IMG/VR virus record: IMGVR_UViG_3300044841_000118
Coordinates: 1-60,317 of that record
DNA length: 60,317 bases
Strand: one strand, 5' to 3'
Origin: a virus
Lineage: Duplodnaviria; Caudoviricetes
The notes beneath the pieces were generated by a model. That model ran no database searches, had not been told where the DNA came from, and saw only the letters and a program-made list of their open reading frames with translations. Shown one piece after another: positions 3,584 through 60,043 of the stretch. Position numbers and translations under genes: made by a program. The number at the start of each line of letters is the position of its first letter. Position 1 is the first letter of the stretch.

Positions 3584-4250
3584 GGTTCTTCCCCCGGAGT
3601 CGCTTGCGATCATCGACCCGGCGGAGGTAGCGCGGCAGACGGTCGTCCAGTTACTGGACGACATCCGCGATCACGAGTACGAGCTGGCCGCCAACTACGC
3701 GCGGCTCGGCGCGGTGCTCTTCGACATCCGCCGCAACCAGTACTGGGACAAATGGGGCTACCTCAGTTTCGGCTCCTACATCCGGGAACTGGCGGACCGG
3801 GTACAGAAAGAGCGGTCACAACTCTACGCGTACATCGGCGTGGCGGAAAAACTTCTGCCGGAGGTAGACGAGCACACGCTGGTCGCGATCGGTATCACCA
3901 AGGCCGGCGAGCTCAAGCGCTTCGTCTCCCAGTCCGGCCGCCGCATTCCTGAGAAGCTGCTGCAGGTAGCGCTCGACGACAAGCGAACCGCCAAGGAACT
4001 GCGCGCCGCGGTGCTCGAAGAGTTGCACCAAGCACCAGACCCGGCGGGCAAGTATTACGAGATCGGCGGGTTCTTTTGCACACCTGATGAGAAGGCAGAG
4101 ATCGATCTGTCGATCCGGATAGCGAAGGGTTTGGATCCAGCTATTCCAAACAACATTCCAGAACATATGCAAATGAAAGAGGTCATGTTGAGGTGGGCGC
4201 GCGAGTTTATCGCCACTTGGCAGGAGGCATTTGAACGTGGAGGAGCTTGA
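3573..4250 (+). CDS. DUF3102-like DNA-binding protein
   Basis: RLGAVLFDIR...WGYLSFGSYI...RSQLYAYIGVAE pattern. Confidence 0.55.
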   Translation: MLVEVLPPESLAIIDPAEVARQTVVQLLDDIRDHEYELAANYARLGAVLFDIRRNQYWDKWGYLSFGSYIRELADRVQKERSQLYAYIGVAEKLLPEVDEHTLVAIGITKAGELKRFVSQSGRRIPEKLLQVALDDKRTAKELRAAVLEELHQAPDPAGKYYEIGGFFCTPDEKAEIDLSIRIAKGLDPAIPNNIPEHMQMKEVMLRWAREFIATWQEAFERGGA

Positions 4251-4803
4251 GCTTACCTGCTATAGGTGCCGCGTCACGAAAGTAGAATCTTTGTTCCACC
4301 GGTGCAAAAAGAACAAGACAGGCCGGCACACGATATGTATCGAATGCTCCAAAATGGAGAAGGCGGCCTACTATCGTTCGGAAAAGGCTGTGCGGTTGAG
4401 AAAAGAACGACAGCCCGAGATTGTAGCTTGGCGGGCACAGTACAACAACAACCCGATAAACAAGGAGAAAAGACGCGACGCACATTACAAACATAAATAT
4501 GGAGTCACTCTAGAAGAGTTCCGTTCCATATTAGAGCGTCAACACCATCGTTGTGTCGTGTGCGGAGAGAGTCCATCCAAGTCTACGCAAAAGAAATTCT
4601 GGAATCTAGATCACGATCACGACACAGACAAAGTTCGGGGTGTGCTGTGCACACCCTGTAATCTCACGCTCGGAGTGGCCAAAGAAAGCATACCTCGCCT
4701 CCAGCGCTGCCTAGCCTACCTCCGATTCCACAAAGGAATGATCAAGGTTCCGGGTCCTTTCATGTACAGCAAGCCTCCCCAAGTTGCGCGTAAGAGTTGG
4801 TGA
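4231..4803 (+). CDS. endonuclease VII-family protein with N-terminal Zn finger
   Basis: YGVTLEEF...CVVC...LDHDH...VRGVLCTPCN; lower GC than flanks. Confidence 0.85.
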   Translation: MNVEELELTCYRCRVTKVESLFHRCKKNKTGRHTICIECSKMEKAAYYRSEKAVRLRKERQPEIVAWRAQYNNNPINKEKRRDAHYKHKYGVTLEEFRSILERQHHRCVVCGESPSKSTQKKFWNLDHDHDTDKVRGVLCTPCNLTLGVAKESIPRLQRCLAYLRFHKGMIKVPGPFMYSKPPQVARKSW

Positions 4804-4809
4804 AAACGC

Positions 4810-5103
4810 ATGGCACGGATACACGTCCCGCATAGCCCGCTCGGGAAGTTCTGCTTCTTCTTCGCAACACAGTGCCTGTCCTACTTTCTGTTCGTGGCCA
4901 ACGCCCGGGCGTACACCCAAGGGCTCTATCTCTGGACCGGAGCGACGGACGGGCTTTTCGCCATGCAGAGCTTCATCATGCTCCAGCTGATAGCGAAGGA
5001 CGCACAGGCCAGCGGCTTCTGGGCCGGGGCCGGTTACACACTGGGCGGTGTGTTCGGCTCGCTGCTCTCTATTTTCGTCACACAACACCTCTACGGACAC
5101 TAA
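4810..5103 (+). CDS. small membrane protein (~3 TM)
   Basis: hydrophobic helices; GYTLGGVFGS. Confidence 0.65.
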   Translation: MARIHVPHSPLGKFCFFFATQCLSYFLFVANARAYTQGLYLWTGATDGLFAMQSFIMLQLIAKDAQASGFWAGAGYTLGGVFGSLLSIFVTQHLYGH

Positions 5104-5114
5104 GGAGACTCACC

Positions 5115-5378
5115 ATGTCAATGAATCCTCAATACAGCTATGAAGGCAACAGCATCAACGCAGGCGTCGGCCAGAGTAACGGCGACCTGAACAGAACAGC
5201 GATTGGTGGGCTTTCGGGCTATGCCTTCACCGTCAACCAGGGCGGCGAATACGGGAAGCACGAGATCATAGACGCTGACCGGTTCGAACTGGAAGGTGAG
5301 TTCGTGATCTTCTACAAGAAGAACAATCAGGTCGCGCTCCGCCGCCTCCACGAAATCGGCAGCATCTCCGCCCGGTGA
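5115..5378 (+). CDS. hypothetical protein
   Basis: TAAGGAG RBS before ATG 5115. Confidence 0.7.
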   Translation: MSMNPQYSYEGNSINAGVGQSNGDLNRTAIGGLSGYAFTVNQGGEYGKHEIIDADRFELEGEFVIFYKKNNQVALRRLHEIGSISAR

Positions 5379-5767
5379 GCAAGACCGTCCACTGTGAGAT
5401 CGACGCCGCTGGCGATGTGATTCGCATCTTCAAGTTCGCCAAAGATGCGAGAGCACTGCCAGCGGAGGCGGTCCGCGAGTACCCCAAGGCATACGCCGTT
5501 GAGCAGATCCGCCGCTTCGTCTTCGAGCGATCTAAAGACATGGACGGCGTCTCCTGCTGCGAGTTCTGTGGTGCCTCCCTCACATGGGAAAGCGGGCATA
5601 TGCACGAGCGGCACGCCAAGGGCAAACAGATCGACGGCGTCTTCGGCGAGGTCTCGCGGGCCAACAGCTGCTTTATCTGCTCGGGCTGCCATACCGAACG
5701 TCCGGATTCTGCACACGGGGACCGCCGCTGGCAGAGCGCGAAAGTAAATCATGCACAGTTCGCGTAA
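5375..5767 (+). CDS. HNH-like Zn-binding nuclease
   Basis: CEFCG...GHMHE...NSCFICSGCH. Confidence 0.65.
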   Translation: MSKTVHCEIDAAGDVIRIFKFAKDARALPAEAVREYPKAYAVEQIRRFVFERSKDMDGVSCCEFCGASLTWESGHMHERHAKGKQIDGVFGEVSRANSCFICSGCHTERPDSAHGDRRWQSAKVNHAQFA

Positions 5768-5828
5768 GTTTCGCCCGTAAATTGCATCATATTTATCACA
5801 ACCCTTCACGCACCACCCTGAAAACCCC

Positions 5829-6583: not shown

Positions 6584-6711
6584 CGCTGCTCCTTTGCTGG
6601 CGCTGCGGGTACGACACGCGGCTCACCCAGACCACCTGTCCAGAATGTGGACACCCTCTCAAGCCTGTCGCAGGCAGCGATTCCCGGAGACCAAATGCCG
6701 AGAAAATCTAA
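6580..6711 (+). CDS. small Zn-ribbon protein (43 aa)
   Basis: CWRCGY...CPECG; GTGA overlap. Confidence 0.55.
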   Translation: MTLLLCWRCGYDTRLTQTTCPECGHPLKPVAGSDSRRPNAEKI

Positions 6712-7165: not shown

Positions 7166-7204
7166 TCTACGTCACTCCCTAATCTGCCATTCCCGAGGAA
7201 CCCC

Positions 7205-7471: not shown

Positions 7472-8652
7472 TGCCTACCACCATTGCAGAACTGAAGCAG
7501 CGCCAGGACGAGAAGGACGCCGCCGGAGCCAAGCTCGGCGAGCAGCACGAAGTCACCGGCAACACATGGGAAGTGTCCATCCCTCGGACGCGCATCTGCA
7601 CTCTGGAGCAGTTGGTCGAACACTGCAAGATCGATCTAAACACCTGGACCGTTAAGAGGTTCGTCGCCAATAAGTGGGAGGTTGGTGCCAAGAACCCGGA
7701 CTCCGGCAAGATCGAGGTCGAGCCGCTCTTCCAGATCAAGGCGTTTCTAGAGCGCCGGGTCGAGGTCGCTGACGCTGTCCAGGAACTGGACGAGTTGAAG
7801 CGGAAGGCTAAGCTCAGCGCAAAACCCTGGGTGTCGATAGATCGGAAGATTTCTCTGCCCTCCGGCAACATGCTTGAGGTCAATCTGCCCGATTTACACG
7901 CGGGCAAACTTGCATGGCAGCAGGAAACTGGCGGCCCGAACTATGACACCAAGATAGCGATCAAAGGGTACTGGGATGCCTTCAACACTCTGCTATCTCG
8001 CGTGAAGCATTTCGAGTTTGAGCAGGTGCTATTCGTGGTCGGCAACGACCTGTTGAACTCCGATGACACAGAAGGGCGCACCAACGCCGGCACACAAGTC
8101 TCCACGGATGTCCGCTACCAGAAGACCTTCGGTACTGTTCGGGACACGATGATTGAGTCGATAGAACGCCTTCGGCGCATCGCTCCGGTCAAGGTGGTAA
8201 TGGTTCCGGGAAATCACGACAAGCTGTCGGTCTGGCATCTTGGCGACTCCCTGGAGTGCTACTTCCACAAGTACGAAGACGTGGAAATCGACAACCGACC
8301 GCGTCAGCGCAAATACCATCAGTTCGGCCTCGTCGGTCTCATGTTCTACCACGGTAACAAGGGGAAGAAGGCAGACTACCCCCTAACCATGGCAACCGAG
8401 ATGCGGAAGATGTTCGGCGCCACCAAGTTCAACGAGTGCCATACCGGACACCTTCACAAATCATGGGCCGACGAATTTCACGGGGTCATCGTCCGTATCC
8501 TGAGCGCGCTCTGCCCCGCCGACGCTTGGCATTCGGAGAACAACTTTATCGGTAACCAGCGTACGGCCGAAGCCTTTGTCTGGAACAAGGACGAAGGGCT
8601 CATCACTATCGCGAGATACACGGCAACCGAAGAAGACGAGGAAGTCGCATGA
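7471..8652 (+). CDS. calcineurin-like metallophosphoesterase
   Basis: DLHAGK, GNDLLN, PGNHD, YHG, HTGHLH. Confidence 0.85.
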   Translation: MPTTIAELKQRQDEKDAAGAKLGEQHEVTGNTWEVSIPRTRICTLEQLVEHCKIDLNTWTVKRFVANKWEVGAKNPDSGKIEVEPLFQIKAFLERRVEVADAVQELDELKRKAKLSAKPWVSIDRKISLPSGNMLEVNLPDLHAGKLAWQQETGGPNYDTKIAIKGYWDAFNTLLSRVKHFEFEQVLFVVGNDLLNSDDTEGRTNAGTQVSTDVRYQKTFGTVRDTMIESIERLRRIAPVKVVMVPGNHDKLSVWHLGDSLECYFHKYEDVEIDNRPRQRKYHQFGLVGLMFYHGNKGKKADYPLTMATEMRKMFGATKFNECHTGHLHKSWADEFHGVIVRILSALCPADAWHSENNFIGNQRTAEAFVWNKDEGLITIARYTATEEDEEVA

Positions 8653-9140
8653 GCGATTACCAACTGCACGGACCAGAAGTCCCCATACTCCGGAAGAGAC
8701 CGGGACTGACGACATGGACACCGGTCCGCAAGCCCATCCAACTCCGCTTCCGCAACGGCTACTGGGAGTTCGAGGTGGATGGGAAGCAGCACAGCGGGTA
8801 CAGCTGCCTGACGTGCGCTCTCGGCACCGCCAGCAAGATTCAGATGGCTGTTCGCAAGCGGGAGATCGACCGCGCGCTGCTGGAGATGGAAGCGAAAATC
8901 TGGCGACACGAGTTCGACACCCCCACCGACCCTGTCCAGAAAACGGACGATAACCCATTCGCGTTTCAGGAAGTACTGAACCAAGCCAGCCCCAATGAGT
9001 TTCCTTGGCCCGGCACGATCATCCCCGTGGATGCTGACGACCCGCGACTGCCTCGTCGCAACTGGTTCCATCGCCAACTCGAGGACATCGGTCTGACAGT
9101 CCGCATGATGTGGGAGTTCGTAAAACGGGAGGTTTTGTGA
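8649..9140 (+). CDS. hypothetical protein
   Basis: coupled to both neighbours by ATGA/GTGA overlaps. Confidence 0.65.
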   Translation: MSDYQLHGPEVPILRKRPGLTTWTPVRKPIQLRFRNGYWEFEVDGKQHSGYSCLTCALGTASKIQMAVRKREIDRALLEMEAKIWRHEFDTPTDPVQKTDDNPFAFQEVLNQASPNEFPWPGTIIPVDADDPRLPRRNWFHRQLEDIGLTVRMMWEFVKREVL

Positions 9141-10920: not shown

Positions 10921-11552
10921 GAATAGTCACCCTGTCAGATACGCATGGACTCCACCACAAAGTCCATATTCCAGACGGCGACGTGCTGGTCCACGCTGGT
11001 GATTTCATGAACTTCGGAACCAGAGTTCAAGAAGCTACAGACTTCCTATCCTGGTTCGCGGGGCATCCGCATTCCGAAAAGATTTTGGTCGCCGGGAATC
11101 ACGACATCCTGTTCGAGCAGGACCCGTCGTGGGCTAATTCCCTGATCCCACCGGGCGTCCAGTACCTGAAGAACTCCGGTACAACGATCCACGGTATTCG
11201 GTTCTGGGGCTCTCCGTTCACTCCGCGCTTCATGGAATGGGCGTTCATGGCTGACCCCGGCGAACCTATCGCCCACATCTGGTCTCAGATTCCAGGAAAG
11301 ACGGATGTTCTGATTACACACGGGCCTCCGCTCGGGATTCTGGACGAGATGGACGAGCCCAAGCAACGAGTCGGCTGTGAAGAACTGCGCAAGGCTGTGG
11401 ATCGGATAAAGCCGCGCTACCACATCTTCGGTCACATCCATGCAGGCTACGGAGTCGAGATGCCGGAAGAGTCCGAAACCCTGTTCGTCAACGCTGCCGT
11501 GTGCAACGAGCAGTACCGCCCGATCAACCAGCCCATTGTCATCGACGTTTAG
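10917..11552 (+). CDS. metallophosphoesterase (MPPED/239FB-like)
   Basis: SDTH, HAGD, AGNHD, THGPP, FGHIH. Confidence 0.9.
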   Translation: MRIVTLSDTHGLHHKVHIPDGDVLVHAGDFMNFGTRVQEATDFLSWFAGHPHSEKILVAGNHDILFEQDPSWANSLIPPGVQYLKNSGTTIHGIRFWGSPFTPRFMEWAFMADPGEPIAHIWSQIPGKTDVLITHGPPLGILDEMDEPKQRVGCEELRKAVDRIKPRYHIFGHIHAGYGVEMPEESETLFVNAAVCNEQYRPINQPIVIDV

Positions 11553-11623
11553 TAACGTGGCCCTGCGTATTTCCGCGAAATAAATCTCGCCGAATTGCAT
11601 CCATAGTGACAGAGGAACAACAG

Positions 11624-12278: not shown

Positions 12279-12297
12279 CCAACGACACAAAGCCACA

Positions 12298-12324
12298 AGG
12301 CCCGCCCGCTCCGGCGGGCTTTTC
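12298..12324 (+). terminator. intrinsic terminator of left arm
   Basis: GCCCGCC/GGCGGGC stem then TTTT. Confidence 0.75.
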
Positions 12325-12338
12325 CATTTCCCGGACAA

Positions 12339-12608: not shown

Positions 12609-13805
12609 ATGGCTAACCGAACCTGCACCCTGATGCTCTACTGCCGCACCGAGAACGGGTGGCGCCGCTTCCCTGCCGCCTTTGGCAAGAACGGGCGCAT
12701 CCGGCCCAACTACGCCGAGGTCGCAGGCGAGCAGGTCCACTTCGATACCGCGCGGTACGAGATCCGCTTCTACGCTGGCCGCAAGGTCCAGTTCAAAGCC
12801 GTCCAGGGAAGCGCAAAGGACGCGCTGGCAGCCCGCCGCCGGCAGGAGGCTCTGCTAGTCGCCCGGGACTCGGCCAAGGCCTCTGGGGCCACCCTGGTCG
12901 AGAATGAGCCCACCCGGAAGAAGCTGACGCAGGAGAAGCAGCGCTGGCTTGAGGGGCTGGAGGCCCGCGGAAAAGCCGAGTTCATCAAGACCGCGCGGGT
13001 GGCGATCGACGACTTTCTGGCCGCCACGGAACTGATCTACGCCGACCAGATCACCGCAGACGCCATGCTGGTCTTCTACCGGGTTCTGCGGAAGCGCGGC
13101 AACTCGGCGCGCACCCTCTACAACAAGGTGATCAACCTCTCCGCCTGGTTCAAGGACATGGGGCTGGAGGTCAAGTCCATCGTCAAGCACAAACCGGTCT
13201 ACACAGAGCGGGAGGTCGACGTCTACAGCCCCGAAGAGATCGGCGACCTGTTCCGCGCCTGCCGCAACGACTACCAGCGCGCGCTGTTCGACGTGCTGCT
13301 CAAGGCCGGGCTGCGCGAGCAGGAGGCGGTCAATCTGGAGTGGACGAACGTCGACTTCCGGGCCAAGGTGCTCCGCGTCCGCGAGAACGTACAAACCGGG
13401 TCATCCATCAAGGACCGGGCCGAGAGATCCGTCCCTATGCCTGACAGTCTGATCGAGTCATTGCGCGCCTGGCGGGAGAAAAGGCCCAAGGCACACCTCG
13501 TCCTCGGCACCGCGACCGACCGGCCCAACAACAAGATGCTGCGGACGCTGAAGCGGGTGGTCAGCGCGGCTAAGCTCAACTGCGGTCGCTGCGATGGGTG
13601 CACCACCCGGGACGAGTGCCGCCGCTGGCGCCTGCACAAGTTCCGGGCCACCTACACCACCCGCCTGCTGCAGAACGGGGTCGATGCCCGAACGGTCATG
13701 GCCTACACGGGGCACGCGGATTTAGCGACCGTGCTGCGCTATCTGGCGCCGGCGGAGGACGCCCCGATGCAGTCCAGGATCAGCAGCATCGAATGGGTGC
13801 GGTAG
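12609..13805 (+). CDS. int: tyrosine integrase
   Basis: GLREQE (R), LHKFRATY (HxxR), GHADL...RY. Confidence 0.95.
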   Translation: MANRTCTLMLYCRTENGWRRFPAAFGKNGRIRPNYAEVAGEQVHFDTARYEIRFYAGRKVQFKAVQGSAKDALAARRRQEALLVARDSAKASGATLVENEPTRKKLTQEKQRWLEGLEARGKAEFIKTARVAIDDFLAATELIYADQITADAMLVFYRVLRKRGNSARTLYNKVINLSAWFKDMGLEVKSIVKHKPVYTEREVDVYSPEEIGDLFRACRNDYQRALFDVLLKAGLREQEAVNLEWTNVDFRAKVLRVRENVQTGSSIKDRAERSVPMPDSLIESLRAWREKRPKAHLVLGTATDRPNNKMLRTLKRVVSAAKLNCGRCDGCTTRDECRRWRLHKFRATYTTRLLQNGVDARTVMAYTGHADLATVLRYLAPAEDAPMQSRISSIEWVR

Positions 13806-13817
13806 TCCGGGAAATGG

Positions 13818-13843
13818 AAAAGCCACCCGGTGAGAGGTGGCTT
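13818..13843 (-). terminator. terminator between int and late arm
   Basis: AAGCCACC/GGTGGCTT stem; U-tract on minus strand. Confidence 0.65.
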
Positions 13844-13900
13844 GGGTTACGATGGTAAGTTGATGCCTTACGACCCGCAGGGCATCATACGGGGTGGGGT

Positions 13901-14083: not shown

Positions 14084-15948
14084 TTTCCGCCCATAATCTT
14101 CTTCGCCTTGGCTGCCTTCACCTTTGGCGCAGGAGCCTTGAGCGCGGGACGCTGGATGTGCGCCTCACCCTCGGGGGTCACATGCACCGGGCTGGTCTTC
14201 GGAGGTTCTGGTTTCGGATAAATCGGGCGCCGTGTTCGATCGACTGCTGTCTCCGCGTTCAGCTTCGGGTACGTTGATCCTGGTACCCCGACATTGCTAT
14301 TCGATGCGTTTCCGGGGAGACCCTTCGCTGCTGGTGCGGCTTGCGGCAGCGCCCCCTGCGAACGGCCAGCCTGCAACGCCTGGGGCGGGGCTGTCGGGCC
14401 AGCAGGTGCCGGGTTGGGCGTCGTCTCGGCAGTGACCGTCTCGGGTGTTCCCTTGCTCGGCAACCGCGGCCTGTCCGGAGTCTGGACGCCGCTATCGAAT
14501 GTGCCGGGCACGGACTCGGGTATCTTCTTGGTGAAGCGGCGGATGTCCGCCTGCGTCTGCGTCATCGGAGACTCGCGGAGCAGCGTCTGTGCGATCTTCT
14601 TCTTGTCTCCGTGCCCGAGGACAGCCCCGGTGACGTCACCGACAGACTCCGCCACGTGTCCGATGAACTGCTTGCCTGTCATCGGGCGGTTGAACTGAAC
14701 CTCTTTCGATGCCAGCGGAACGCGCGCGTTCTCCAGCGCTTCACGAGTGGTGAGTAGATCAGATTCCGTCTGCTTGAGCTTTTTGAAGTCCTGTCCGGTG
14801 GCGTTGCTTAGACCGTCGTAGTATGTGTTACGGACAGCTGACGAAGCGGCACTCAGAGCCTGATCCAGATTCGCCGACCGCTGTACAGCCACGCCGCTCA
14901 TCTTGAAGGACGGAGATGTCTGGTTGTTCAGGTACATCCGAAGTCCGTTCAACTCCCCGAGCGTATCTACGCTGGCGACGCGCTTCTTCAGCGATTCCAG
15001 TTCGTTGACGTCATCTGGGGCATATTTTTCCATGCCCTCCTTCTTCAGATCGTCAATGGCTTGCAGAACGGGTTTCATATCGACGGGCTGGTTCTTCACA
15101 TTCCGCAGCGCGTCCAGGTGTGCCTCGTCGATGTGCTGCTGCGCATTGTGGACAGCTTCGTGGAAGGCGTCGTAGGTTTCCTCTGGAGTGGCTTTCGGAT
15201 CGAGGATGCGTTCCCGTAGTGCCCGGTTCGACTGGATCTCCTGCTGAACGATTGGGGAAACGCTGCTGGCGACCTCCTTCGCGTCGAAGTTCTTCCCCAT
15301 GCCAGCCTTGCCTTGGTCGATGACCGCAGTGAAACCGCGATGGGCTGCGCTGTTCTCAGGATTGGCTCGGTTCTCAAGAGCCCCCTGCGTCTTGTTGACG
15401 CCGCGTTCCGTAAGGTGCGGGACCAAAGAGGTCAGAAGGTCGCCTAACGTTTCGCCTGCACCCCGGTTGGGGCTTTCTTCCATGTCCTTCTGGTCTTCAG
15501 CAAGCGCTGGATTGACTGCCGCATCCGCCATGTGTGATAGACCGAGGTAGTAGTTGGACGCGCGCTGGCTGTTGGTGACAGCGGGGTCGTTCCGAAGATG
15601 ATACGCAGTGCTGATTTCGTCGGCACCCTGCCGTATCAACTGTCCACGATTGTGCAGGTCGCTCTTTATACTATCGACAGGGTTATCAGTGGGAATGGTG
15701 AGCCCCGACAAACGGTGCATCATCCCACGCGCGGCGTCCCCCATGTTTGAAAGGAAACCCCCATCCGTGGGTGCACTACCGCCCGTACTCGGTGCATCCC
15801 ATTCCACACCGTCCGCGCCGCTGGGTGTAGCAGGAGCAGAGGCGGACGGCTCAGAGGTTCCGGTATACACGGTCGCTGGCGCAGTAGCGCCAGCCGTTGC
15901 TGGTGCGTCCCACTCGACTCCGGGAGTTGTGTTCTTCTCGTCGGCCAT
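14080..15948 (-). CDS. internal virion/DNA ejection protein
   Basis: last gene of podovirus morphogenesis block; helical; GVEWDAP repeats. Confidence 0.6.
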   Translation of the reverse strand: MADEKNTTPGVEWDAPATAGATAPATVYTGTSEPSASAPATPSGADGVEWDAPSTGGSAPTDGGFLSNMGDAARGMMHRLSGLTIPTDNPVDSIKSDLHNRGQLIRQGADEISTAYHLRNDPAVTNSQRASNYYLGLSHMADAAVNPALAEDQKDMEESPNRGAGETLGDLLTSLVPHLTERGVNKTQGALENRANPENSAAHRGFTAVIDQGKAGMGKNFDAKEVASSVSPIVQQEIQSNRALRERILDPKATPEETYDAFHEAVHNAQQHIDEAHLDALRNVKNQPVDMKPVLQAIDDLKKEGMEKYAPDDVNELESLKKRVASVDTLGELNGLRMYLNNQTSPSFKMSGVAVQRSANLDQALSAASSAVRNTYYDGLSNATGQDFKKLKQTESDLLTTREALENARVPLASKEVQFNRPMTGKQFIGHVAESVGDVTGAVLGHGDKKKIAQTLLRESPMTQTQADIRRFTKKIPESVPGTFDSGVQTPDRPRLPSKGTPETVTAETTPNPAPAGPTAPPQALQAGRSQGALPQAAPAAKGLPGNASNSNVGVPGSTYPKLNAETAVDRTRRPIYPKPEPPKTSPVHVTPEGEAHIQRPALKAPAPKVKAAKAKKIMGGN

Positions 15949-15951: not shown

Positions 15952-17865
15952 TTAGTTCGCCCTCTTCCAGTTCTTGTTCTTCGCCAGCAAATCATCGACT
16001 TTGTCCATGGTGGTTGTCCCGCCGCGGCCCTTGTCGTCCACAATCCGGACAGGGATAGAGGCTCCGAAGTGCGCGCGCACGAACCGGTTGTGGTCCGCGT
16101 ACACACGCATGCGATCACCCAGCGCAATGCGCGCCGCGCGCACGGCTTCGTCGATCTGCGCAGTGTTGAAGTTCTTCGGGAAGTTCTCCTGCGCGAGCTT
16201 AATCTTGGCGTCTGATGTGGCGCCGCCCTGAGCGAAGATCGAGCCGTATTGCTCCGCGATATCGTTCATCAACTGATGAAGCGTCACACCTTCGGGGCTG
16301 CCGGACTGGATACGGCCCCAAGCCTGTACATCGTTCAATGCCGGCAGTGATGTAATCCCGGCCTTATGCGCCTCCTGCTGCAACTCGGACAGCAGTCCGC
16401 TCTTGCCGTCGCTGCCGGTCAGCGTAACGTTGGCCTTCACCTTAGTCTGGACGGGGACGCTGTTGAACTCCTTCGCCTCCTGGCGCTGGCCCTCAAAGTC
16501 GTACTTGCCGCCGGAGAGTTTCAGGATGCGGTCCTGCACGTCCTGACGGAACTTGGACGCTTCCTTACCCATGCCTTTGCCGACGGTGTCGATGGTATCG
16601 TTTCCGGCAATGATGTTTTTGGCGGCGCGACCAACGCGGTCATCCGCGTTGTTGGGATCAGACACGTCCGATGCAGCATCTGCCGCCTGACTGGTCTGCG
16701 TGGCTCGGCCTGCCCGGGCAGTCTGGTGTGATTTCGCGTCGGAAGCATGAGCAGCGCCAAGCCGCTGGGCCGCCTGCGCCTGTTTATCCGCGAGGTCCGC
16801 CGCATCCATGGCGACCTTCTGCTGCTTCTGCCGATCCGTCTCCTGCTGGAGTTGATACTGCGTGTGCTTGTTCTTCAGCGCGATGTACTGGCTCGCATCC
16901 AGTTGCTTGCCCGGCTGTAGGATGTCGGCCGCGTTCTGCCCCATGGTGTCAAGGAAGCCGTCCTTCTTCCACGCGTTCAGCGTGACGTCTGACAATGGCA
17001 CCTTGCCCTTGGGATCGAACGCCGAGTAAACGTACTGGTAGTGGTGCTCGCCAGTCTGCGCGTCGACGCTCTCCTTCATACCGACCGGCTCCCAGTCCAA
17101 CGCACTTGCGCCAGGATTGCTCTGGATGGTCTTCTGCATCTCTTCTTCGGGAACTTGGTCGAAGGTCGGTTTCAGTCCCGCGTCGAGGTACGGGGCCACA
17201 TTCGTCTTGCCGGCCTGCGCGTGCTTCTGGTGGGTGTCGTAATCCTGTGCCTGCGTTTCCTGATTTAGCTTCAGGGTCCCGATGTTTGAATGAGCGATCT
17301 GTGCCTTCAACAGTTGCCCGTTGACGTCGGTCTCCTGCTGGTCCCGCTGGTTCTTGTCAGCGGTCATTTGATTTTTGAACTGGTTCTGCGCCTGCTCCCG
17401 CCGGCCTTCATCCTGTTGACCCTTCATCTGTTCGACAGCGCCTGCGCCTGCGACGGCACCGGCCAGCGGACTTCCACCTGCCGCGCGCGCGGCCTGCCCA
17501 CCAACGGCTCCACCAACCAACGCACCTGCTAGGATGCGCCGGAAGAGTTCGCCGGGCTTCATGTTGCTCACCGTCGTGACGGTCTGTCCAGTTTTCGGAT
17601 CGATGCTGTAGTTAGCTTCCTTGCCGAGCGCGCCGAGCAACTGCTGCCCGATGCCCGCAAGATGGCTGGTCTTCGCGGCTTGAACCTTCGCTGTTACATC
17701 CGGCTCCGTCGGATTCAGAGCCGCGACTTGCGCGTTCGGCTGCGGCGCGGGGGTTGTCTGCTGTACAGGAACTGGACTCGGCTGCGCCTCTGCCGGTGCG
17801 GTTGGTTCGCCGGCGGGCTGCGCGTCTCCCTGGGGTACTTGCTCGTCGTTCTCTTCCGGACCCAT
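15952..17865 (-). CDS. internal virion/DNA ejection protein
   Basis: Gly-zipper hydrophobic segment; Q/A-rich coiled coil; position. Confidence 0.6.
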   Translation of the reverse strand: MGPEENDEQVPQGDAQPAGEPTAPAEAQPSPVPVQQTTPAPQPNAQVAALNPTEPDVTAKVQAAKTSHLAGIGQQLLGALGKEANYSIDPKTGQTVTTVSNMKPGELFRRILAGALVGGAVGGQAARAAGGSPLAGAVAGAGAVEQMKGQQDEGRREQAQNQFKNQMTADKNQRDQQETDVNGQLLKAQIAHSNIGTLKLNQETQAQDYDTHQKHAQAGKTNVAPYLDAGLKPTFDQVPEEEMQKTIQSNPGASALDWEPVGMKESVDAQTGEHHYQYVYSAFDPKGKVPLSDVTLNAWKKDGFLDTMGQNAADILQPGKQLDASQYIALKNKHTQYQLQQETDRQKQQKVAMDAADLADKQAQAAQRLGAAHASDAKSHQTARAGRATQTSQAADAASDVSDPNNADDRVGRAAKNIIAGNDTIDTVGKGMGKEASKFRQDVQDRILKLSGGKYDFEGQRQEAKEFNSVPVQTKVKANVTLTGSDGKSGLLSELQQEAHKAGITSLPALNDVQAWGRIQSGSPEGVTLHQLMNDIAEQYGSIFAQGGATSDAKIKLAQENFPKNFNTAQIDEAVRAARIALGDRMRVYADHNRFVRAHFGASIPVRIVDDKGRGGTTTMDKVDDLLAKNKNWKRAN

Positions 17866-26328: not shown

Positions 26329-26442
26329 ACGTACTTATCAGGAACGCCCCAAGGTGTCGGGGTCACCGCTGCATCAGTCCCACTCTCAGGCAAACCCGAC
26401 GTGACAGAGGGCGCGAATAGGGGAGCAGCAGCACACTGTCCA

Positions 26443-26478
26443 GAAAATGGAAAGGGCAGGCGAGGAAACGCCTACCCT
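26443..26478 (-). terminator. intrinsic terminator/attenuator
   Basis: AGGGTAGGCG/CGCCTGCCCT stem then TTCCATTTT. Confidence 0.6.
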
Positions 26479-34943: not shown

Positions 34944-34990
34944 TCGAAAGGGTCACGGACGCGGGGAGCGTCCGGAAAATGGACGGGCCT

Positions 34991-37984: not shown

Positions 37985-38062
37985 CTGAAGTAGGTGCCGC
38001 TACATACTTAGATGCGATTCTGCATGAAAATCATCACCCTATTTTCGTCCAGAAACTGGACA

Positions 38063-47510: not shown

Positions 47511-49366
47511 TAGGATCCTGTCTGCTGGTATGCCTCTGGGGGAGGCGTGGGCGCACGCGGCGTCGTGACAATCCCGGCGCTGGTGTCGGAGGGGGCCGTC
47601 GGCTGAACCGTGCTCTGCGGCAGCTTGTCCAGGTCTTCGAGGTATGGCTTGTACGCGGCATCCATGTCGGAAGCTGCCTGGCCGGTGACGTGCGGCCGCT
47701 GTGAAACGTAGTACTGAATGGCTGCGGCCTGTTTCTCCCAGGGGAGAGACAGGATGGTTCCGCCCTTCTTGCGCAGGTCGATCAACCCTTGGGCGCCGCC
47801 GTAGTTGTACGGGTCCTTCTCGTCGTCGGCCGGAATTTTCGCGGCGATCTCCGGCGGAAGGTTGTGCTGGATGATGTGCATACCCTCATGCGCGACCAGC
47901 TGCTGGACGGTGTAATCGTCGAGTGGCGTGTTGTGGTCAAACAGGATGGTGTGCGGCTCGCCCTTCACCACACCGGCGTAGTCAGGGCGGCCAGTGATGA
48001 AGGAGTCTTCGAGCGCGCCGTGCCCGAACTGCACCTTGTCGCTGCTCAGGTGACGCTGCAACTGCGGCGGCATGGCCGTCACCGCGCGCGCCGTGACCTC
48101 CTGAAGACGATCGTGCGCGCTGCTACCGTCGGTAGGAGCCTTTGTGTCTGCCACCTTTTTTCCTTTGGGCGGGGTCATCCCGTGCGCCTTGTAGTCGTTC
48201 TCGTCCCAATCCGACTCAGGAGTAACGGTCTGCTTGCCCTTCGGCGCGGACTGTCCAGAAGGGCCTGCGGGCGTTCCGCTTTGGTCTACCTTCCTGTTGT
48301 GCAGCACCTGCGAATAAGCGTCGGCATTGTCCGGATTGTCGAACTTGCCAAGGTGCTCACCCGTCTTGAGGTAGTGTTGCCATGCTGCTTGGAACATGGC
48401 CTTCTCGGCAGGACTTCCTTCCGGCGGCTTCTTACCGTTTGGAGTAAGGAACTTACCTCCCACAACAGTGGGGACAAGTACTTCGTGACCGTCGTCGTCT
48501 CCGAAAGATGTGGAGTATTCAGAACTGATAGTCCCGTCCGCGTTGTGGACAATCGGGCGGTGCCAGATCGGAAGGTTGCCCTTCTCGACAAGACCCTTAG
48601 GATTGGCCGCAGCCATGAAGGGGTCTTGAGCACCCTGCATAGCATTCGGTTTCGTCTTGGATTTATTAGGATTCAACGGGACAGGGTCTCCACCCAACAG
48701 CGGGTCCGGCTTCAGCATTCCCAAGCCCGGGGTATCGGCGGGAGGCAGTCCGGGAGCTTCCGGATGGGTATTGATTTCGTCGCCCTCGGGCTGGGGCGCA
48801 AGCTGCTTGATGAAGGGGTGGTAGGCGTTCTGCAGGTCCGCGTAGTCCGCCAGGTCGTACTTGTTGACCTTCCCTTCCTTGGCGTATTGTTCGATTTGGC
48901 GAGATGCCTGGATGTAGTCCTTCACCATCTGGGCTTGCTGCTCTACGTTGAAGTTCGCCATGGTCTTGCCTTCGGCGCGCGCCTTTAGTAGGCCGGGGAC
49001 ACCGCCGTAGTCGTACATAGCCGTTGCGTTCGGATCGTGAGGCTCCGGCAAATCCTGACCGGGCTCAACGCCGTCGGTTCTTGCGAACTGCGAGACGTGC
49101 GTGGACTCGTGACCGCGAATGGGTGGTGTAAAGCCCTTACGGTTTCGTACCTTGATCGTTGTGGGGTCATCACCATCTACCTCGCCTGCCACCCACTTCA
49201 GTTTTCCGGGCAGACGTCCTGCCATGACTTCTTTGACCTTCGACCAGTCAACCGTTTGGCGAGCAAAGGCAGGGACGCCGTTGAGCGCACCGACTCCAGC
49301 GGCTGTGCCGGAGGTATCAAAATTGGGCTTCTTGGTTGCCACTAATTCCTTGAGGGGTTTGCCCAC
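47510..49366 (-). CDS. multidomain protein with two HExxH zincin-like domains
   Basis: HESTHVSQ...YDYGG...EQQA and HEGMHIIQ...YNYGG...EKQA flanking a TGEHLGKF domain. Confidence 0.7.
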   Translation of the reverse strand: MGKPLKELVATKKPNFDTSGTAAGVGALNGVPAFARQTVDWSKVKEVMAGRLPGKLKWVAGEVDGDDPTTIKVRNRKGFTPPIRGHESTHVSQFARTDGVEPGQDLPEPHDPNATAMYDYGGVPGLLKARAEGKTMANFNVEQQAQMVKDYIQASRQIEQYAKEGKVNKYDLADYADLQNAYHPFIKQLAPQPEGDEINTHPEAPGLPPADTPGLGMLKPDPLLGGDPVPLNPNKSKTKPNAMQGAQDPFMAAANPKGLVEKGNLPIWHRPIVHNADGTISSEYSTSFGDDDGHEVLVPTVVGGKFLTPNGKKPPEGSPAEKAMFQAAWQHYLKTGEHLGKFDNPDNADAYSQVLHNRKVDQSGTPAGPSGQSAPKGKQTVTPESDWDENDYKAHGMTPPKGKKVADTKAPTDGSSAHDRLQEVTARAVTAMPPQLQRHLSSDKVQFGHGALEDSFITGRPDYAGVVKGEPHTILFDHNTPLDDYTVQQLVAHEGMHIIQHNLPPEIAAKIPADDEKDPYNYGGAQGLIDLRKKGGTILSLPWEKQAAAIQYYVSQRPHVTGQAASDMDAAYKPYLEDLDKLPQSTVQPTAPSDTSAGIVTTPRAPTPPPEAYQQTGS

Positions 49367-53489: not shown

Positions 53490-53752
53490 AGGGAAATACC
53501 GGGCCGGCAGTCTCAATCTGGGCGAACCTGCCACTTTCGTCCGCAGATCGCGTGTAAATTCCTCCGCGTTTTCTGCCTCTAAGTGATTAGACGCAAAAAG
53601 CATGGGGCAATTGACAAGTATATTTTCAGGCCGGCCGTGGTCTGCCTGAGATTGGGTGCAGTTCGTGCGGTTCCGGCGTGTCCAGTTTCTGGACACTGGC
53701 TTGTGTGGCGCGCGCGTAGCCAAACTTTCATCACATACACACACTTTACGTG

Positions 53753-54556: not shown

Positions 54557-54602
54557 TGTCCGGAAAATGGACAACTCACCCAAAGTATGTAGCAATATTG
54601 TA

Positions 54603-55060: not shown

Positions 55061-55092
55061 GCCAGTCCAGATTCTGGACAGAGGAGAAGAAC

Positions 55093-55721: not shown

Positions 55722-55857
55722 CACCATCGCAAACACCATCAGCCGGTTTATCTGCCTGCACCGTGGCTCGCAGCTGCGGCGCGTTGAAGGTTCCGTGCTC
55801 TACATCGAGTGCATGGAATGTGGCGCCTGCAGCCCTGGAGTTGTGACCGGCGAGTAG
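55714..55857 (+). CDS. small Zn-binding protein (47 aa)
   Basis: AAGGAG RBS; C.H...CMECG. Confidence 0.6.
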   Translation: MLNTIANTISRFICLHRGSQLRRVEGSVLYIECMECGACSPGVVTGE

Positions 55858-55916
55858 TCCAGTAAATGGACGGTTCCCACTTCGGGAATAGCGGTAAACA
55901 TCACACAATTTGTGTA

Positions 55917-56790: not shown

Positions 56791-56925
56791 AGCAATCAGT
56801 TTCCTCAAAACCTGAAACAATCATCCTGTGCAACACTCAGCCCCTGGAACGCCAATAGCGATGCATACCGAATCAGCTTAGAAGGCTGATGCGCTAAGAC
56901 CGTGCCCAAGGAAAGGCTAGCACCC

Positions 56926-57210
56926 ATGCACTGCCCCATCTGTTACGAACGAAGCAAGGGACAAGGAGCGCGGCCGCTCCGGCGCAGCATCGGCAGGGTG
57001 GCCGCCGAATCCCTGAACCGCGCATCTGAATCCGCTATGCGAAATCTGACCAGTCCAGTTTCTGGACACATAGGGGTGATGGACGCGCGTAGTGCGGCAC
57101 ACGCAGCAAGACATCTGGAGATAGAAGCGCCGGCGCGGTTTGCCTATCTCCTTCCAGACTCCCCCGAGGGGGTGGGCCAGTTATTTTTGAAACGAACGGA
57201 GGCTGTATGA
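56926..57210 (+). CDS. hypothetical protein
   Basis: CPIC start; coupled to next gene. Confidence 0.5.
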   Translation: MHCPICYERSKGQGARPLRRSIGRVAAESLNRASESAMRNLTSPVSGHIGVMDARSAAHAARHLEIEAPARFAYLLPDSPEGVGQLFLKRTEAV

Positions 57211-57488
57211 GCATTCATCCCGGACCGTGGCGCGTAAAGCACGGCTATCAGATCGTCGATGGTAATGGTGTCCGCATAGTGGACGCCGAGAGAACAGGAC
57301 TCAACGACGCAACCATACAGGATTGCCTCCGCCTGATCGCGGCCGCACCGGCAATGCTCAAAGCACTGCAGGCTGTTTATGCCGGTGTGGTCAAGTCACG
57401 CAATGAGGAACGTCTTGTCATCAACATCAGTCTTCAGGCATTCAAAGACGTGGAAGCGGCCATATCTAAGGCCACAGAGCCCGAATGA
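57207..57488 (+). CDS. common phage hypothetical protein
   Basis: PGPW...LIAAAPAML motif. Confidence 0.75.
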   Translation: MSIHPGPWRVKHGYQIVDGNGVRIVDAERTGLNDATIQDCLRLIAAAPAMLKALQAVYAGVVKSRNEERLVINISLQAFKDVEAAISKATEPE

Positions 57489-58517: not shown

Positions 58518-58624
58518 TTACTGCGCATCCAGTTTCTGGACAGCCAGCTGATTCTTCGGCCCACCCCAAGATAGTTCCGAACCGGAATCATCACTTAGGG
58601 CGTCGAGATTGATCAACGAGGCGG

Positions 58625-58849
58625 TCATGTCGTCTTAGAACCCCAAACGATCTTTGGCAGCACGGAGATGCTACCCCAATACATTTCCACGTATTCCGCA
58701 GGGCGCAATTTACCTGTAACAGCGAAGTCGAGAACGCTTGCGGCCAGAAAGAGAGGCCAGACCATCACGGCGAAGAACAAACCAGGCAGAGCGGCCAGCG
58801 GTGTGAGCAGTACGCGGAGGGTCAACTGGAGTAGACGGCGGATGGTCAT
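58625..58849 (-). CDS. small membrane protein
   Basis: hydrophobic hairpin; GCATC promoter box upstream. Confidence 0.55.
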   Translation of the reverse strand: MTIRRLLQLTLRVLLTPLAALPGLFFAVMVWPLFLAASVLDFAVTGKLRPAEYVEMYWGSISVLPKIVWGSKTT

Positions 58850-58933
58850 GGGAGGGGTGCTGGTAGTTAAGATGCGGATTGCTGAGAAAAATTAACATAC
58901 TTTTTCTCAATCGTTGTCCGCGTCTTGCGCGTC

Positions 58934-59017
58934 CTAAACCAAACCAAAACCTATACCAAACCTAAACCTAAACCCTACGGGCATCTTCCGGGATTATCCG
59001 GGAGACTCCGGGAGAAC
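58934..59017. repeat. ori-like region: AAACC-rich tract plus three 10-bp iterons
   Basis: CTAAACCAAACCAAAACCTATACCAAACCTAAACCTAAACCCT; TCCGGGATTA/TCCGGGAGAC/TCCGGGAGAA. Confidence 0.55.
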
Positions 59018-59115
59018 TGTAAGCTCCACAAAACACACGGCTTGCTGCAGGGGGTATCACAAAGGTAACTAAATTGTCTCTAAATTGTCATTTTCGCGTT
59101 TATGATGTGCTCTCA

Positions 59116-59295
59116 ATGACCAAAACGAAGGGCGGCAAGGTGCCGCAATGCCCTATCCATGGGCGGGATCTGGTGTGCCCGTCTTGTGCAGCAATCGAAC
59201 GGGGCCGGAAGGGCGGGGAGAAGACCTCCGCCGAAAAAGCGAAAACCGCGCGGGAGAACGCGGCCAAAGCTCGTAAGAAACGGCACCCGAAGTGA
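59116..59295 (+). CDS. small basic KGG-motif DNA-binding-like protein with Zn knuckle
   Basis: CPIH...CPSC; GRKGGEKTSAEKAKTAREN. Confidence 0.65.
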   Translation: MTKTKGGKVPQCPIHGRDLVCPSCAAIERGRKGGEKTSAEKAKTARENAAKARKKRHPK

Positions 59296-59329
59296 AGCCG
59301 GGCGGGTCTGTCTCCAACCCGCCCAACCC

Positions 59330-60043
59330 CTACGCGGCTTCTTCTTCTTCTACTTTGCGTGGGCGGCCGCGCTTGGCCCGTACGCCTTCGGCGATCGCAA
59401 TCGGCTCGAAACTCTGCCGGTTAGATATCCCCATTGCGGTCATCAACATGCCCACGTGTGCGTCAAGAAACGCTTTCCGTGCTTTGTGGCTGCGGGGCAG
59501 ACGCTTGACGCGGCTGTCCACAAACCGGAAGCACTCGAGCTCGATACGGTCCAGGCTGTACGTTCTCTCTTGCAGGTAATGCTCTTTGCGGAACTGGACG
59601 ACCTTGTCCAGGTAGTCGTGAACTTTCTTCGGATCTTGCGTCTTGGGCGGTGGCAGCGCAGCAACCGCTTCCGTGAAACGACCAAGGGGGCGCTCCTCAT
59701 TCGTCCCCATCATGTCCAGGCCCCGAGACATCGCTGCCAGCAAGTAAATCTCCGGCAGGTTGGCCTTCGCGTTCTCGAACCCGTTCATTAAGTTGTAGGC
59801 AGTCTTGCGGTCAAAGCGGATCTCGTCCAGAAAACGGACGAACACCCCCTTGGGCTGCAGGATTTCGCGGATGCGGACCAGCCGCTCCCCGATTGCCATG
59901 CGTGCCCGCCCGAAGTTGACCATGTCACTGCCTAAACCTTTGGTCTCCTTCTCAAGCGTGGCGCGTTCCTTTGGATCGAGTTCCCCCAGGTGGTCGATCA
60001 CCGCTTCGAAGTTCGTCAATGTGATGTCTGTGTTCTTCATCAT
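59330..60043 (-). CDS. DUF3102-like DNA-binding protein with AT-hook
   Basis: AIGERLVRIR...G.FVRFL...RKTAYNLM; C-terminal KRGRPRK. Confidence 0.65.
   Translation of the reverse strand: MMKNTDITLTNFEAVIDHLGELDPKERATLEKETKGLGSDMVNFGRARMAIGERLVRIREILQPKGVFVRFLDEIRFDRKTAYNLMNGFENAKANLPEIYLLAAMSRGLDMMGTNEERPLGRFTEAVAALPPPKTQDPKKVHDYLDKVVQFRKEHYLQERTYSLDRIELECFRFVDSRVKRLPRSHKARKAFLDAHVGMLMTAMGISNRQSFEPIAIAEGVRAKRGRPRKVEEEEAA

Follow-up and report, generated by a model that had tools for sequence, protein, structure and literature searches.

A dispersed GTCC-N7-GGAC palindrome in a clade of uncultured soil podophages, a candidate binding site for a symmetric DNA-binding protein

Short operator-like repeats dispersed over a whole genome are known from few cultured phages, and the closest published analogue of the element described here, judged by its layout, is the repeat of the Cluster O mycobacteriophages (Corndog and its relatives), the function of which has been open since 2015. 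This repeat is a 17-bp sequence, 5'-TGTTCGGNNNCCGAACA, arranged as an inverted repeat around a 3-bp centre, and Corndog has 34 copies in ~70 kb, 29 of them with AAA or TTT in the centre and 14 of them intergenic. Its authors report no meaningful orientation (a weak bias), an enrichment in the non-structural arm and absence from host genomes, and suggest a dimeric protein without giving a function (PMC4351075). Here we describe an element of comparable design, GTCC-N7-GGAC (GTCCNNNNNNNGGAC), in the IMG/VR virus record IMGVR_UViG_3300044841_000118, a stretch of 60,317 bases that was analysed as a whole and is called the window below. Like the Cluster O repeat, the motif has invariant arms, an A/T centre and tens of copies in and between genes, and is free in orientation; unlike it, the motif belongs to a podophage with other hosts, not to a siphovirus of Actinobacteria, and its sequence is unrelated. 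The Cluster O phages are also described there as closely related, whereas the window motif spans genomes with portal proteins 53–68% identical and GC contents of 39–60%, with variants of the inner bases and with losses. The Cluster O paper was the only relevant one returned by our literature search, which found no report of a GTCC-N7-GGAC motif.

Other dispersed sites resemble the motif in part. The stoperators of Cluster A mycobacteriophages, recognised by L5 gp71, are asymmetric 13-bp sites bound by a monomer, oriented with transcription and proposed to block elongation. They have in common with the motif the tens of short sites over the genome, many of them in short intergenic gaps, and the variants in related phages, but the window motif is two-fold symmetric and has no orientation bias, and on these two points the stoperator analogy drawn in an earlier note on this DNA fails. 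No immunity repressor was identified in Pfam scans of the window open reading frames (ORFs), despite an integrase and an Xis-like protein. KorB on the OB sites of IncP plasmids, ParB on parS and the centromere sites of phage N15 are cases in which a helix–turn–helix (HTH) dimer on dispersed palindromes has global effects on transcription or partition. Their palindromes of 13–16 bp over a replicon of 40–100 kb are similar to the 15–17 bp of the motif, but its copy number is 2–10 times higher, and the Pfam scans made of the clade turned up no domain of the ParB family. In phage P1 (C1 operators) and Streptomyces phage phiC31 (inverted repeats), one regulator acts on ~17–20 operators across a temperate genome. 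Those operators sit at promoters, whereas the window motif is mostly within genes and its promoter-linked copies lie at variable distances upstream of the -35 element.

The window contains 24 exact copies of GTCC-N7-GGAC, from 3645 to 59839 (Table 1). The earlier note had seen the pattern correctly and counted 17 copies, missing seven. In 100 dinucleotide-preserving shuffles the pattern occurred on average 1.92 times and at most six times, and 24 copies were reached in none of the 100. A purine at position 5 and a pyrimidine at position 11 (the R/Y rule), ascribed in the earlier note to all copies, are present in 23 of the 24 (shuffle mean 0.45); the exception is the copy at 43338 (GTCCCGTAGGGGGAC), which also has a G/C centre and is possibly a chance occurrence. 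When up to one mismatch is allowed, 70 matches are found (shuffle mean 39.0, largest 55), 46 of them with one mismatch, and the nine such copies listed before are all present in this larger set. The codon-aware control proposed at that time left the enrichment in place, with 18 copies in the first set of coding sequences against a mean of 3.0 after shuffling synonymous codons (maximum 8) and of 2.05 after codon permutation (maximum 9; 500 shuffles each). Coding copies avoid one reading frame (1 of ~18), as expected for G/C-rich third positions, and this frame bias by itself yields just 2–3 copies in the shuffles. Only the spacing of 7 is enriched, with 24 copies against 0–4 at every other spacing from 0 to 15, and among all 4-Nk-4 palindromes with k from 0 to 12 the motif is the sole outlier (z-score 15.9), the next-ranked ones, TCCA-N5-TGGA and TGTC-N9-GACA, being the same sites shifted by one base inward or outward. 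A control pattern, reversed but not complemented, occurs once in the genome's own record.

The anatomy of the site is that of two half-sites, YGTCCR, placed 11 bp apart with an A-tract between them, so that the GTCC and GGAC arms are one helical turn apart. The flanks add one base per side, a pyrimidine before and a purine after, and the whole site measures 15–17 bp (YGTCCAGAAACTGGACR is an example of a sequence that carries it). The centre is A/T-rich, as had been noted earlier, with A or T in 42 of 48 bases at position 7 and in 44 of 48 at position 8 when both strands are counted, and the inner bases in the window are typically those of GTCCAGAAACTGGAC and its variants. The centre is found in both orientations and the copies on both coding strands.

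In order to distinguish a DNA site from an RNA hairpin, we counted Watson–Crick pairs at symmetric positions and compared them with the expectation under independence. For the 24 sites of the window there were 11 pairs against 12.4 expected at positions 5/11, 12 against 9.3 at 6/10 and 7 against 9.2 at -1/+1. In the relative G002 (46 sites; the relatives are described below) inner pairing is strongly avoided, with 12 pairs against 23.6 at 5/11, none against 22.0 at 6/10 and 11 against 23.3 at 7/9, and in G010 (28 sites) 5 were found against 11.9 at 6/10; in both genomes the symmetric arms enclose a centre that is asymmetric and of defined sequence. Compensatory changes that keep a stem were not seen at the flanking and inner positions in the window, and are present only in the flanks of certain G002 sites discussed below. 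The same intergenic flanking context holds the centre in either orientation, and in G002 the A-run is on the sense strand in ~30 sites against 16, a weak bias read from the table by eye. The lack of base-pair covariation together with the free orientation points to a double-stranded DNA site for a symmetric protein rather than to a hairpin.

Relatives of the window were found by means of the portal protein (40 IMG/VR loci, 41–68% identity), and the copies expected in each record were computed from the arm frequencies. Against 24 observed and 1.5 expected copies in the window (G000), we found 46 against 0.31 in G002 (109 kb, 39.5% GC), 28 against 1.04 in G010, 19 against 0.67 in G005, 19 against 0.42 in G001 and 13 against 0.82 in G004; G003 has 15 copies in 33 kb, and G022, a complete genome with direct terminal repeats, has 21 copies in 106.5 kb. 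The motif-rich relatives thus carry 13–46 copies per record. Enrichment is weak in G009 (9 against 1.21) and G008 (7 against 0.73) and absent from G006 (1 against 0.84), G013 (1 against 1.39) and Tunturiibacter phage Tunturi_3 (2 against 1.4), and G014 has no copy in 31.5 kb. No other high-copy word was found in G006, G013 or Tunturi_3 either. The last of these, a 97.6-kb acidobacterial podovirus with a portal 34% identical, is the sole cultured relative among GenBank phages, and a word search of the Tunturi phage paper returned no mention of palindromes, inverted repeats, motifs or promoters. The arms are invariant across genomes and the inner bases are lineage-specific (GGAAAAT, GGAAACC, GCAAAAC): the inner form is that of GTCCGGAAAATGGAC in G002, where one 13-mer is common to 23 of the 46 sites, and is typically that of GTCCGGAAACCGGAC in G005 and of GTCCGCAAAACGGAC in G010.

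Some of these records are overlapping pieces of identical genomes (G015 lies within G005, and G011 overlaps G012 and G003 overlaps G001), so that the independent motif-rich genomes are the window, G004, G001/G003, G002, G005, G010, G011/G012 and G022. Since G007 joins both ends of G009 at 99.97–100% identity, G009 (98.2 kb) appears to be complete and circularly permuted, though classed as linear and 77% complete. In a portal tree of 36 rows, with a midpoint root that is not secured, the outgroups (Tunturi_3 and two long-branched contigs) are without the motif, which is found in a basal grade and in the window's own clade and is gone from a subclade of 13 rows with 100/100 support. This is consistent with an ancestral trait of the clade, later lost in some lineages. 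We also scanned 2.9 million viral contigs for one 15-mer variant, obtaining 114 stretches of which about 80 were listed; among the stretches listed, the contigs with at least three copies were known members of the group or the fragments G018–G022, which were counted in full and whose size and CheckV completeness imply genomes of ~105–110 kb. Another scan, for the 15-mer GTCCAGAAACTGGAC, returned nearly nothing but single matches in unrelated contigs.

The comparison between the window and G004, whose orthologous genes are 55–72% identical in DNA, allows the fate of single sites to be followed. One of the sites in the portal gene is identical at 15 of 15 positions and stands in a block of 20 identical bases with neighbouring codons that differ, and the loop encoded there is variable in other relatives; we read this as a signal of purifying selection on the site. 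Ten coding sites of the window could be aligned to G004, and two of them keep all eight arm bases, two change one and six change 3–7. Conservation is thus limited to a part of the sites, with frequent turnover among the others, and what selection favours seems to be the presence of sites more than the location of each.

According to the refined gene list, by which 89.4% of the window is coding, 16 sites are fully coding, six are fully intergenic and two lie across a gene end, so that 8 of the 24 are not fully coding compared with 11.7% of positions (binomial P = 0.0046). The density is higher in the non-structural part, with 12 sites in 21.3 kb against 12 in the remaining 39.0 kb. The largest gap between sites is at most 5.6 kb in the window and in G002, and the mean spacing in the window is about 2.5 kb; the sites of G002 are more evenly spaced than random (coefficient of variation, P = 0.003; largest gap, P = 0.002) and those of the window are borderline (P = 0.09 and 0.027). 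The early region contains three near-identical sigma70-like promoters, P0–P2 (TTGACA or GTGACA, a 16-bp spacer and TGC-TAYTCT; common sequence TTGTGCTAYTCT), each followed by a strong ribosome-binding site and each preceded by a motif site about 30–59 bp upstream of the -35 element. Of the four strict promoter-like matches in the window, three have a motif site in the 100 bp that precede the -35 element (P about 2e-4), as do three of seven in G004; for exact TTGACA, the site-linked fractions are 2/3 in the window, 3/7 in G004 and 3/9 in G002 (P 0.005 or below in each). Sites just downstream of promoters are rare (0–1 per genome). A fourth promoter-like site, at 60207–60235, is directed off the right end of the contig. 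As a separate observation, the motif copy at 5963–5977 of G004 (L066) tips a 9-bp GC-rich hairpin at the end of a zf-C2HC gene, 23–24 bp upstream of the -35 element of the next promoter and terminator-like in look.

We give a probability of about 0.5 to the explanation that a symmetric DNA-binding protein involved in the organisation of transcription recognises the motif at its dispersed sites. The motif, its enrichment, symmetry, conservation and placement are observed, whereas protein binding, the dimeric state of the protein, its identity and the effect of its binding are inferred. Recognition by a symmetric, probably dimeric, protein is the best reading of the properties of the site: invariant arms one helical turn apart, an R/Y rule that holds independently for each half-site, free orientation, an A/T centre and conservation across GC contents. 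In the major groove, each subunit would contact one 5'-Y-GTCC-R half-site; with their centres 11 bp apart, both half-sites would face the same side of the helix, and the A/T-rich centre, often AAA or AAAA, would offer a narrow and bendable minor groove between them. The layout also resembles the 15-bp consensus of Fis type. The sites would act as dispersed operators, at the ends of early genes, upstream of the three early sigma70-like promoters and every few kb in the late genes. Once bound there, the protein would serve to separate transcription units from one another or to block them, and so to shape expression or DNA architecture over the whole genome, and would not be a classical promoter-overlapping repressor. 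The anatomy favours the dimeric protein that the earlier note had proposed to recognise the site genome-wide, and does not separate the roles suggested for it there, namely roadblock, partition or condensation, and self-marking.

In the search for the binder, 86 window ORFs were compared with 10 relatives by tblastn, 1324 ORFs were clustered all against all, four candidate families were extended by hidden Markov model (HMM) iterations, and 183 G022 ORFs were compared with 14 records, again by tblastn. Pfam scans (69 + 44 window ORFs, 49 representatives of shared families, 95 ORFs of G005 and 120 of G002) revealed neither ParB nor a classical repressor, and returned two small sigma-like factors and many nucleases. 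Several families were considered and rejected. A 159-residue family resembling sigma region 4, the family of ORF 3573-4250 (with HTH-like leads only), and the family of ORF 40993-41361, promising in the G022 comparison, are all also present in the motif-lacking G013, and a LAGLIDADG-like family and one of 95–112 residues are each limited to one subclade. Of the three gene products put forward in the earlier note, that of 3573-4250 is therefore dismissed and that of 59116-59295 has no Pfam match; the third, P0001 (59330-60043), could plausibly bind DNA, since it ends in a conserved AT-hook, but four other motif-rich records have no member of its family.

P0001 is nevertheless the most suggestive protein in the window and may be the binder in the window's own subclade. 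Its gene, the one at the contig's right end, reads away from the promoter-like site at 60207–60235 and carries a motif site in its coding sequence that the G004 orthologue keeps with one change. In its close family RGRPRK is conserved, with G226, R227 and R229 almost unchanged across 10 sequences; the wider family, of ~220–290 residues, comprises 481 cluster representatives from public metagenomes at E ≤ 0.001, and 123 of 156 representatives have GRP in the last 25 residues. AT-hooks bind A/T tracts through the minor groove, a mode of recognition that would match the centre of the site, and P0001 would in that case place an HTH-like core on the arms and its AT-hook in the central minor groove. 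The family corresponds to no Pfam family, and no solved relative was found, a profile search of the PDB returning nothing below E 0.1. The Pfam AT_hook match on P0001 is weak (E 0.22) and is found in one of 50 family members, which otherwise give faint matches to DUF3102 (3/50) and HTH families. The AlphaFold model is all-helical with a mean predicted local distance difference test score of 79.6. Closer alignment of P0001-family loci gave only G004 among viral contigs and none among metagenome contigs, two single-protein scans gave nothing, and a degenerate peptide pattern matched 19 unrelated loci. A relation between the P0001 and P0002 families was rejected (hhalign probability 1.6%).

Several results weigh against a transcription-organising protein as the reason for the motif. 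BLAST clustering, tblastn profiles and HMM searches over 11–15 genomes gave no phage gene family that tracks it in every motif-rich record. Among the ORFs of G001, G002, G005 and G010 there is no member of the P0001 family, and the motif-poor G008 and G009 have P0001 homologues without the AT-hook; Foldseek of P0001 against the PDB returned nothing at E ≤ 0.001, and its best VIA-align matches reach Z 7.7 and, for the Spo0J/ParB HTH region, 7.1, values within the noise for helical proteins. The association with promoters is absent in G001 (0/3), G005 (0/2), G010 (1/15) and G022 (0/18). Where a site precedes a promoter, its distance to the -35 element varies from 11 to 63 bp, which fits no activator or repressor of fixed geometry. 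The evenness of spacing is not significant in G004, G001, G005 and G010 (P 0.15–0.76), and in G002 at least 11 intergenic copies tip longer RNA hairpins. With its family missing from these four motif-rich records, P0001 does not account for the clade as a whole: the binder has either been exchanged for another protein, or changed so far that it is no longer recognised, or is a core protein or one of the host.

A host protein as binder, that is, a transcription factor or nucleoid protein of Acidobacteriota-like hosts whose site the phages recruit or titrate, is in our view unlikely, although it would account for the lack of a phage gene family that co-occurs with the motif in all motif-rich genomes, and the loss in the well-supported 13-row portal subclade could then reflect a host shift. 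In two Acidobacteriota metagenome-assembled genomes (MAGs), which hold related contigs and are candidate hosts only, the R/Y form is no more frequent than the control, with 42 occurrences against 45 in one of 6.1 Mb and 43 against 128 in one of 7.6 Mb. The motif is accordingly not frequent host-wide in these two genomes, a point raised in the earlier note, and its density in the window is ~60 times theirs; a regulon of a few tens of sites would still escape such a genome-wide count. Seven of the 42 copies in the 6.1-Mb MAG are on one contig, with coordinates reaching 50,119, which is probably the phage-like contig itself. Against a host factor also stand the inner bases, lineage-specific and uniform within a genome, which are a better fit to co-evolving specificities encoded by the phages, and the viral contig scan, where all contigs with at least three copies, among the stretches listed, were members of the group or fragments of ~105–110-kb genomes.

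That the element acts as an RNA stem-loop (GUCC, a 7-nt loop and GGAC), in processing, termination, stability or translational control, seems to us rather improbable for the clade as a whole. The 4-bp stem is unstable, isolated sites folding at -5.3 and -7.7 kcal/mol with z about 0 (8934 and 6638). A hairpin would require complementarity and not an invariant GTCC, and at gathering thresholds Rfam finds only a tRNA-Asn in the window. Both loop orientations occur in the same context, and two thirds of the sites are within genes, on both coding strands; on the other side, several intergenic sites of the window follow stop codons directly. The case for RNA comes mainly from G002, the only place where covariation was found. 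Its hairpins are part of cassettes with the order TAA, CCTGC, 3–6 covarying bases, motif, complementary bases, a bulged base, GGAGG and ATG, in which the upstream CCUGC pairs with the GGAGG ribosome-binding site. Their predicted folding energies are -16 to -22 kcal/mol (z -3.1 to -6.8), the ribosome-binding site is buried in the fold, and the covarying flanks include cgat/atcg, tcat/atga, ctat/atag, cta/tag, gta/tac, gaat/attc and aaac/gttt. G002 alone encodes an RNase III with a double-stranded RNA-binding domain (44803–45552, Pfam E 4e-25), located amid the cassettes (region 43–73 kb), and the gene has no tblastn match in 15 other records. RNase III hairpins are known in the early genes of phage T7, and promoter–stem-loop cassettes are known from T4-type phages. 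G002 is like them in having a stem-loop repeated between small early genes and an RNase III gene of its own, but its stems are of ~13 bp with a bulge and are predicted only, and the arrangement is not seen in the window. The G002 cassettes look like a processing or translational switch built around a pre-existing DNA motif, which may therefore have a role at the RNA level in this genome.

A bolder version of the protein-bound site is an ancient genome-marking system of the phage lineage, in which an unrecognised class of protein would use evenly spread sites, retained despite deep divergence and GC shifts of 20 percentage points, to organise or identify the whole chromosome, through looping or condensation for replication and packaging or through discrimination of self from non-self, and not through gene-by-gene regulation. 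We regard this version as speculative and hardly likely; under it, the Cluster O repeats would be an independent invention of the same principle. Should the sites prove to organise or mark the chromosome, and not to regulate single genes, phage genome biology would gain a new principle.

We doubt more strongly that the motif is the target of a DNA transaction, such as nicking or cutting by a phage nuclease, priming, packaging or a recombination hotspot between repeats. The clade is rich in nucleases (two Endonuclease_7 ORFs and an HNH in the window, four to five Endonuclease_7 in G005 and G010), a LAGLIDADG-like ORF is syntenic in G001, G002, G005 and G010, and homodimeric nucleases read pseudo-palindromes of such size. 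The ~2.5-kb spacing with few long gaps would also suit such a target, and recombination between Cluster O repeats has been inferred in the part of the paper concerned with them (PMC4351075). However, none of the nuclease families follows the distribution of the motif: the window and G004 lack the LAGLIDADG-like ORF, and Endonuclease_7 is also found in the motif-free G013 and Tunturi_3. Moreover, a palindromic cut site present in 24–46 copies would fragment the genome. A compositional or coding artefact, in which codon usage or a repeated peptide yields the word, is refuted, since the avoided reading frame that it predicts from G/C-rich third positions is accompanied by 18 coding copies against 2–3 in shuffles, enrichment from 39.5% to 60% GC, a third of copies in non-coding DNA and a spacing of strictly 7. 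Independently of the motif, the clade is crowded with nucleases of homing type (Endonuclease_7, GIY-YIG/NUMOD3, HNH and LAGLIDADG), and an intein that carries a LAGLIDADG domain splits the large subunit of ribonucleotide reductase in G002 (94691–97234).

The motif defines a clade of uncultured soil podophages of ~60–110 kb linked to Acidobacteriota, and it is conserved where almost no early genes are. Its lineage variants and clean losses make the clade a natural comparative system for finding the binder and its function, and the motif itself is a simple signature for spotting such phages in metagenomes.

Table 1. Motif sites, early promoters and selected genes of the window (motif sites are listed without strand)
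Feature	Position	Strand	Sequence	Context or basis
Exact site	3645..3659		GTCCAGTTACTGGAC	inside ORF 3573-4250
Exact site	6638..6652		GTCCAGAATGTGGAC	spans GTG start of ORF 6647-7165
Exact site	7575..7589		GTCCATCCCTCGGAC	in exonuclease ORF 7471-8652
Exact site	7777..7791		GTCCAGGAACTGGAC	in exonuclease ORF 7471-8652
Exact site	8934..8948		GTCCAGAAAACGGAC	in ORF 8649-9140
Exact site	14473..14487		GTCCGGAGTCTGGAC	in ORF 14080-15948
Exact site	16036..16050		GTCCACAATCCGGAC	in ORF 15952-17865
Exact site	21390..21404		GTCCAGTTTCCGGAC	in ORF 21104-21892; one core base changed at G004 orthologous position
Exact site	25762..25776		GTCCACAAAATGGAC	in ORF 22593-26147
Exact site	26896..26910		GTCCATATAACGGAC	in ORF 26523-27584; core kept at G004 orthologous position
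Exact site	29883..29897		GTCCGGAAAACGGAC	in ORF 29501-29932
Exact site	34970..34984		GTCCGGAAAATGGAC	intergenic, ORFs 34221-34943 / 34991-35614
Exact site	38047..38061		GTCCAGAAACTGGAC	intergenic, downstream of ORF 38108-38617
Exact site	40300..40314		GTCCGCTTGCTGGAC	in ORF 39727-40947
Exact site	42090..42104		GTCCGGTTACTGGAC	portal gene; 15/15 identical at G004 orthologous position
Exact arms only	43338..43352		GTCCCGTAGGGGGAC	portal gene; R/Y rule broken, G/C centre
Exact site	48536..48550		GTCCGCGTTGTGGAC	in ORF 47510-49366
Exact site	53680..53694		GTCCAGTTTCTGGAC	intergenic, 58-59 bp upstream of P0 -35
Exact site	54558..54572		GTCCGGAAAATGGAC	directly past stop of ORF 54419-54556; 30-31 bp upstream of P1 -35
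Exact site	55065..55079		GTCCAGATTCTGGAC	between stop at 55060 and ribosome-binding site of ORF 55093-55395
Exact site	55857..55871		GTCCAGTAAATGGAC	overlaps stop of ORF 55714-55857; 46 bp upstream of P2 -35
Exact site	57053..57067		GTCCAGTTTCTGGAC	in stretch 56791-57206, probably non-coding
Exact site	57270..57284		GTCCGCATAGTGGAC	in ORF 57207-57488
Exact site	59825..59839		GTCCAGAAAACGGAC	inside candidate binder gene 59330-60043; one core base changed in G004 orthologue
One-mismatch copy	5700..5714		GTCCGGATTCTGCAC	
One-mismatch copy	10962..10976		GTCCATATTCCAGAC	
One-mismatch copy	12322..12336		TTCCATTTCCCGGAC	
One-mismatch copy	13805..13819		GTCCGGGAAATGGAA	end of integrase gene, abutting stop codon
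One-mismatch copy	17586..17600		GTCCAGTTTTCGGAT	
One-mismatch copy	23791..23805		GTCCGGAAAATGGCC	
One-mismatch copy	26438..26452		GTCCAGAAAATGGAA	
One-mismatch copy	45048..45062		GTCCGGTTTCCAGAC	
One-mismatch copy	58527..58541		ATCCAGTTTCTGGAC	
Sigma70-like early promoter P0	53753..53780	+	TTGACA-16-TACTCT	then ribosome-binding site, ATG at 53806
Sigma70-like early promoter P1	54603..54630	+	TTGACA-16-TATTCT	TG-extended
Sigma70-like early promoter P2	55917..55944	+	GTGACA-16-TATTCT	TG-extended
Candidate binder P0001	59330..60043	-		237 aa, all-helical; C-terminal AT-hook KRGRPRK at residues 224-230
DnaB-type helicase, C-terminal part	1-627			runs off left end; Pfam/PHROGs
Xis-like HTH_17 ORF	11797-12009			beside integrase; Pfam
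Tyrosine integrase	12609-13805			Pfam/PHROGs
Adaptor	34221-34943			Pfam/PHROGs
tRNA-Asn (GTT)	37453-37530	-		inside structural block, next to intergenic copy at 38047
Major head protein	38707-39690			Pfam/PHROGs
SU10-type portal	41471-43546			Pfam/PHROGs
Large terminase	44397-46496			Pfam/PHROGs
Peptide deformylase	51790-52434	-		Pfam E 8e-44

The window itself is probably an incomplete contig, a fragment of an SU10-like podophage from soil, classed as linear in IMG/VR and with a CheckV completeness of 56%. Genes run rightward in 1–14083, leftward in 14080–53111 (the structural block) and rightward again from ~53800. Besides the genes in Table 1, Pfam and PHROGs identify a sliding clamp, two Endonuclease_7 ORFs, an exonuclease and an HNH protein, and no polymerase was found among the window genes. 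The open ORF at the right end (59805–60314) would join the helicase ORF of the left end in frame if the ends were joined, and it overlaps the better-supported minus-strand gene of P0001. Among GenBank phages, megablast with 8 kb of window sequence gave no match, a search with the major head protein found two contigs binned in Acidobacteriota MAGs, and the best-matching public run is a soil metagenome.

The integrase and the neighbouring Xis-like HTH_17 ORF suggest a temperate lifestyle, unlike that of most of the larger relatives. Phage peptide deformylases, of which the window has one, are auxiliary genes better known from marine phages. A deoxynucleoside monophosphate (dNMP) kinase and a 5'-dNMP phosphatase are found side by side in the window (9110–9691 and 10130–10720), and G002 and G005 also have MazZ-like dATP/dGTP diphosphohydrolase, MazG, NUDIX and nucleoside deoxyribosyltransferase domains, a set of nucleotide-metabolism genes that hints that some members of the clade may replace or modify a DNA base.

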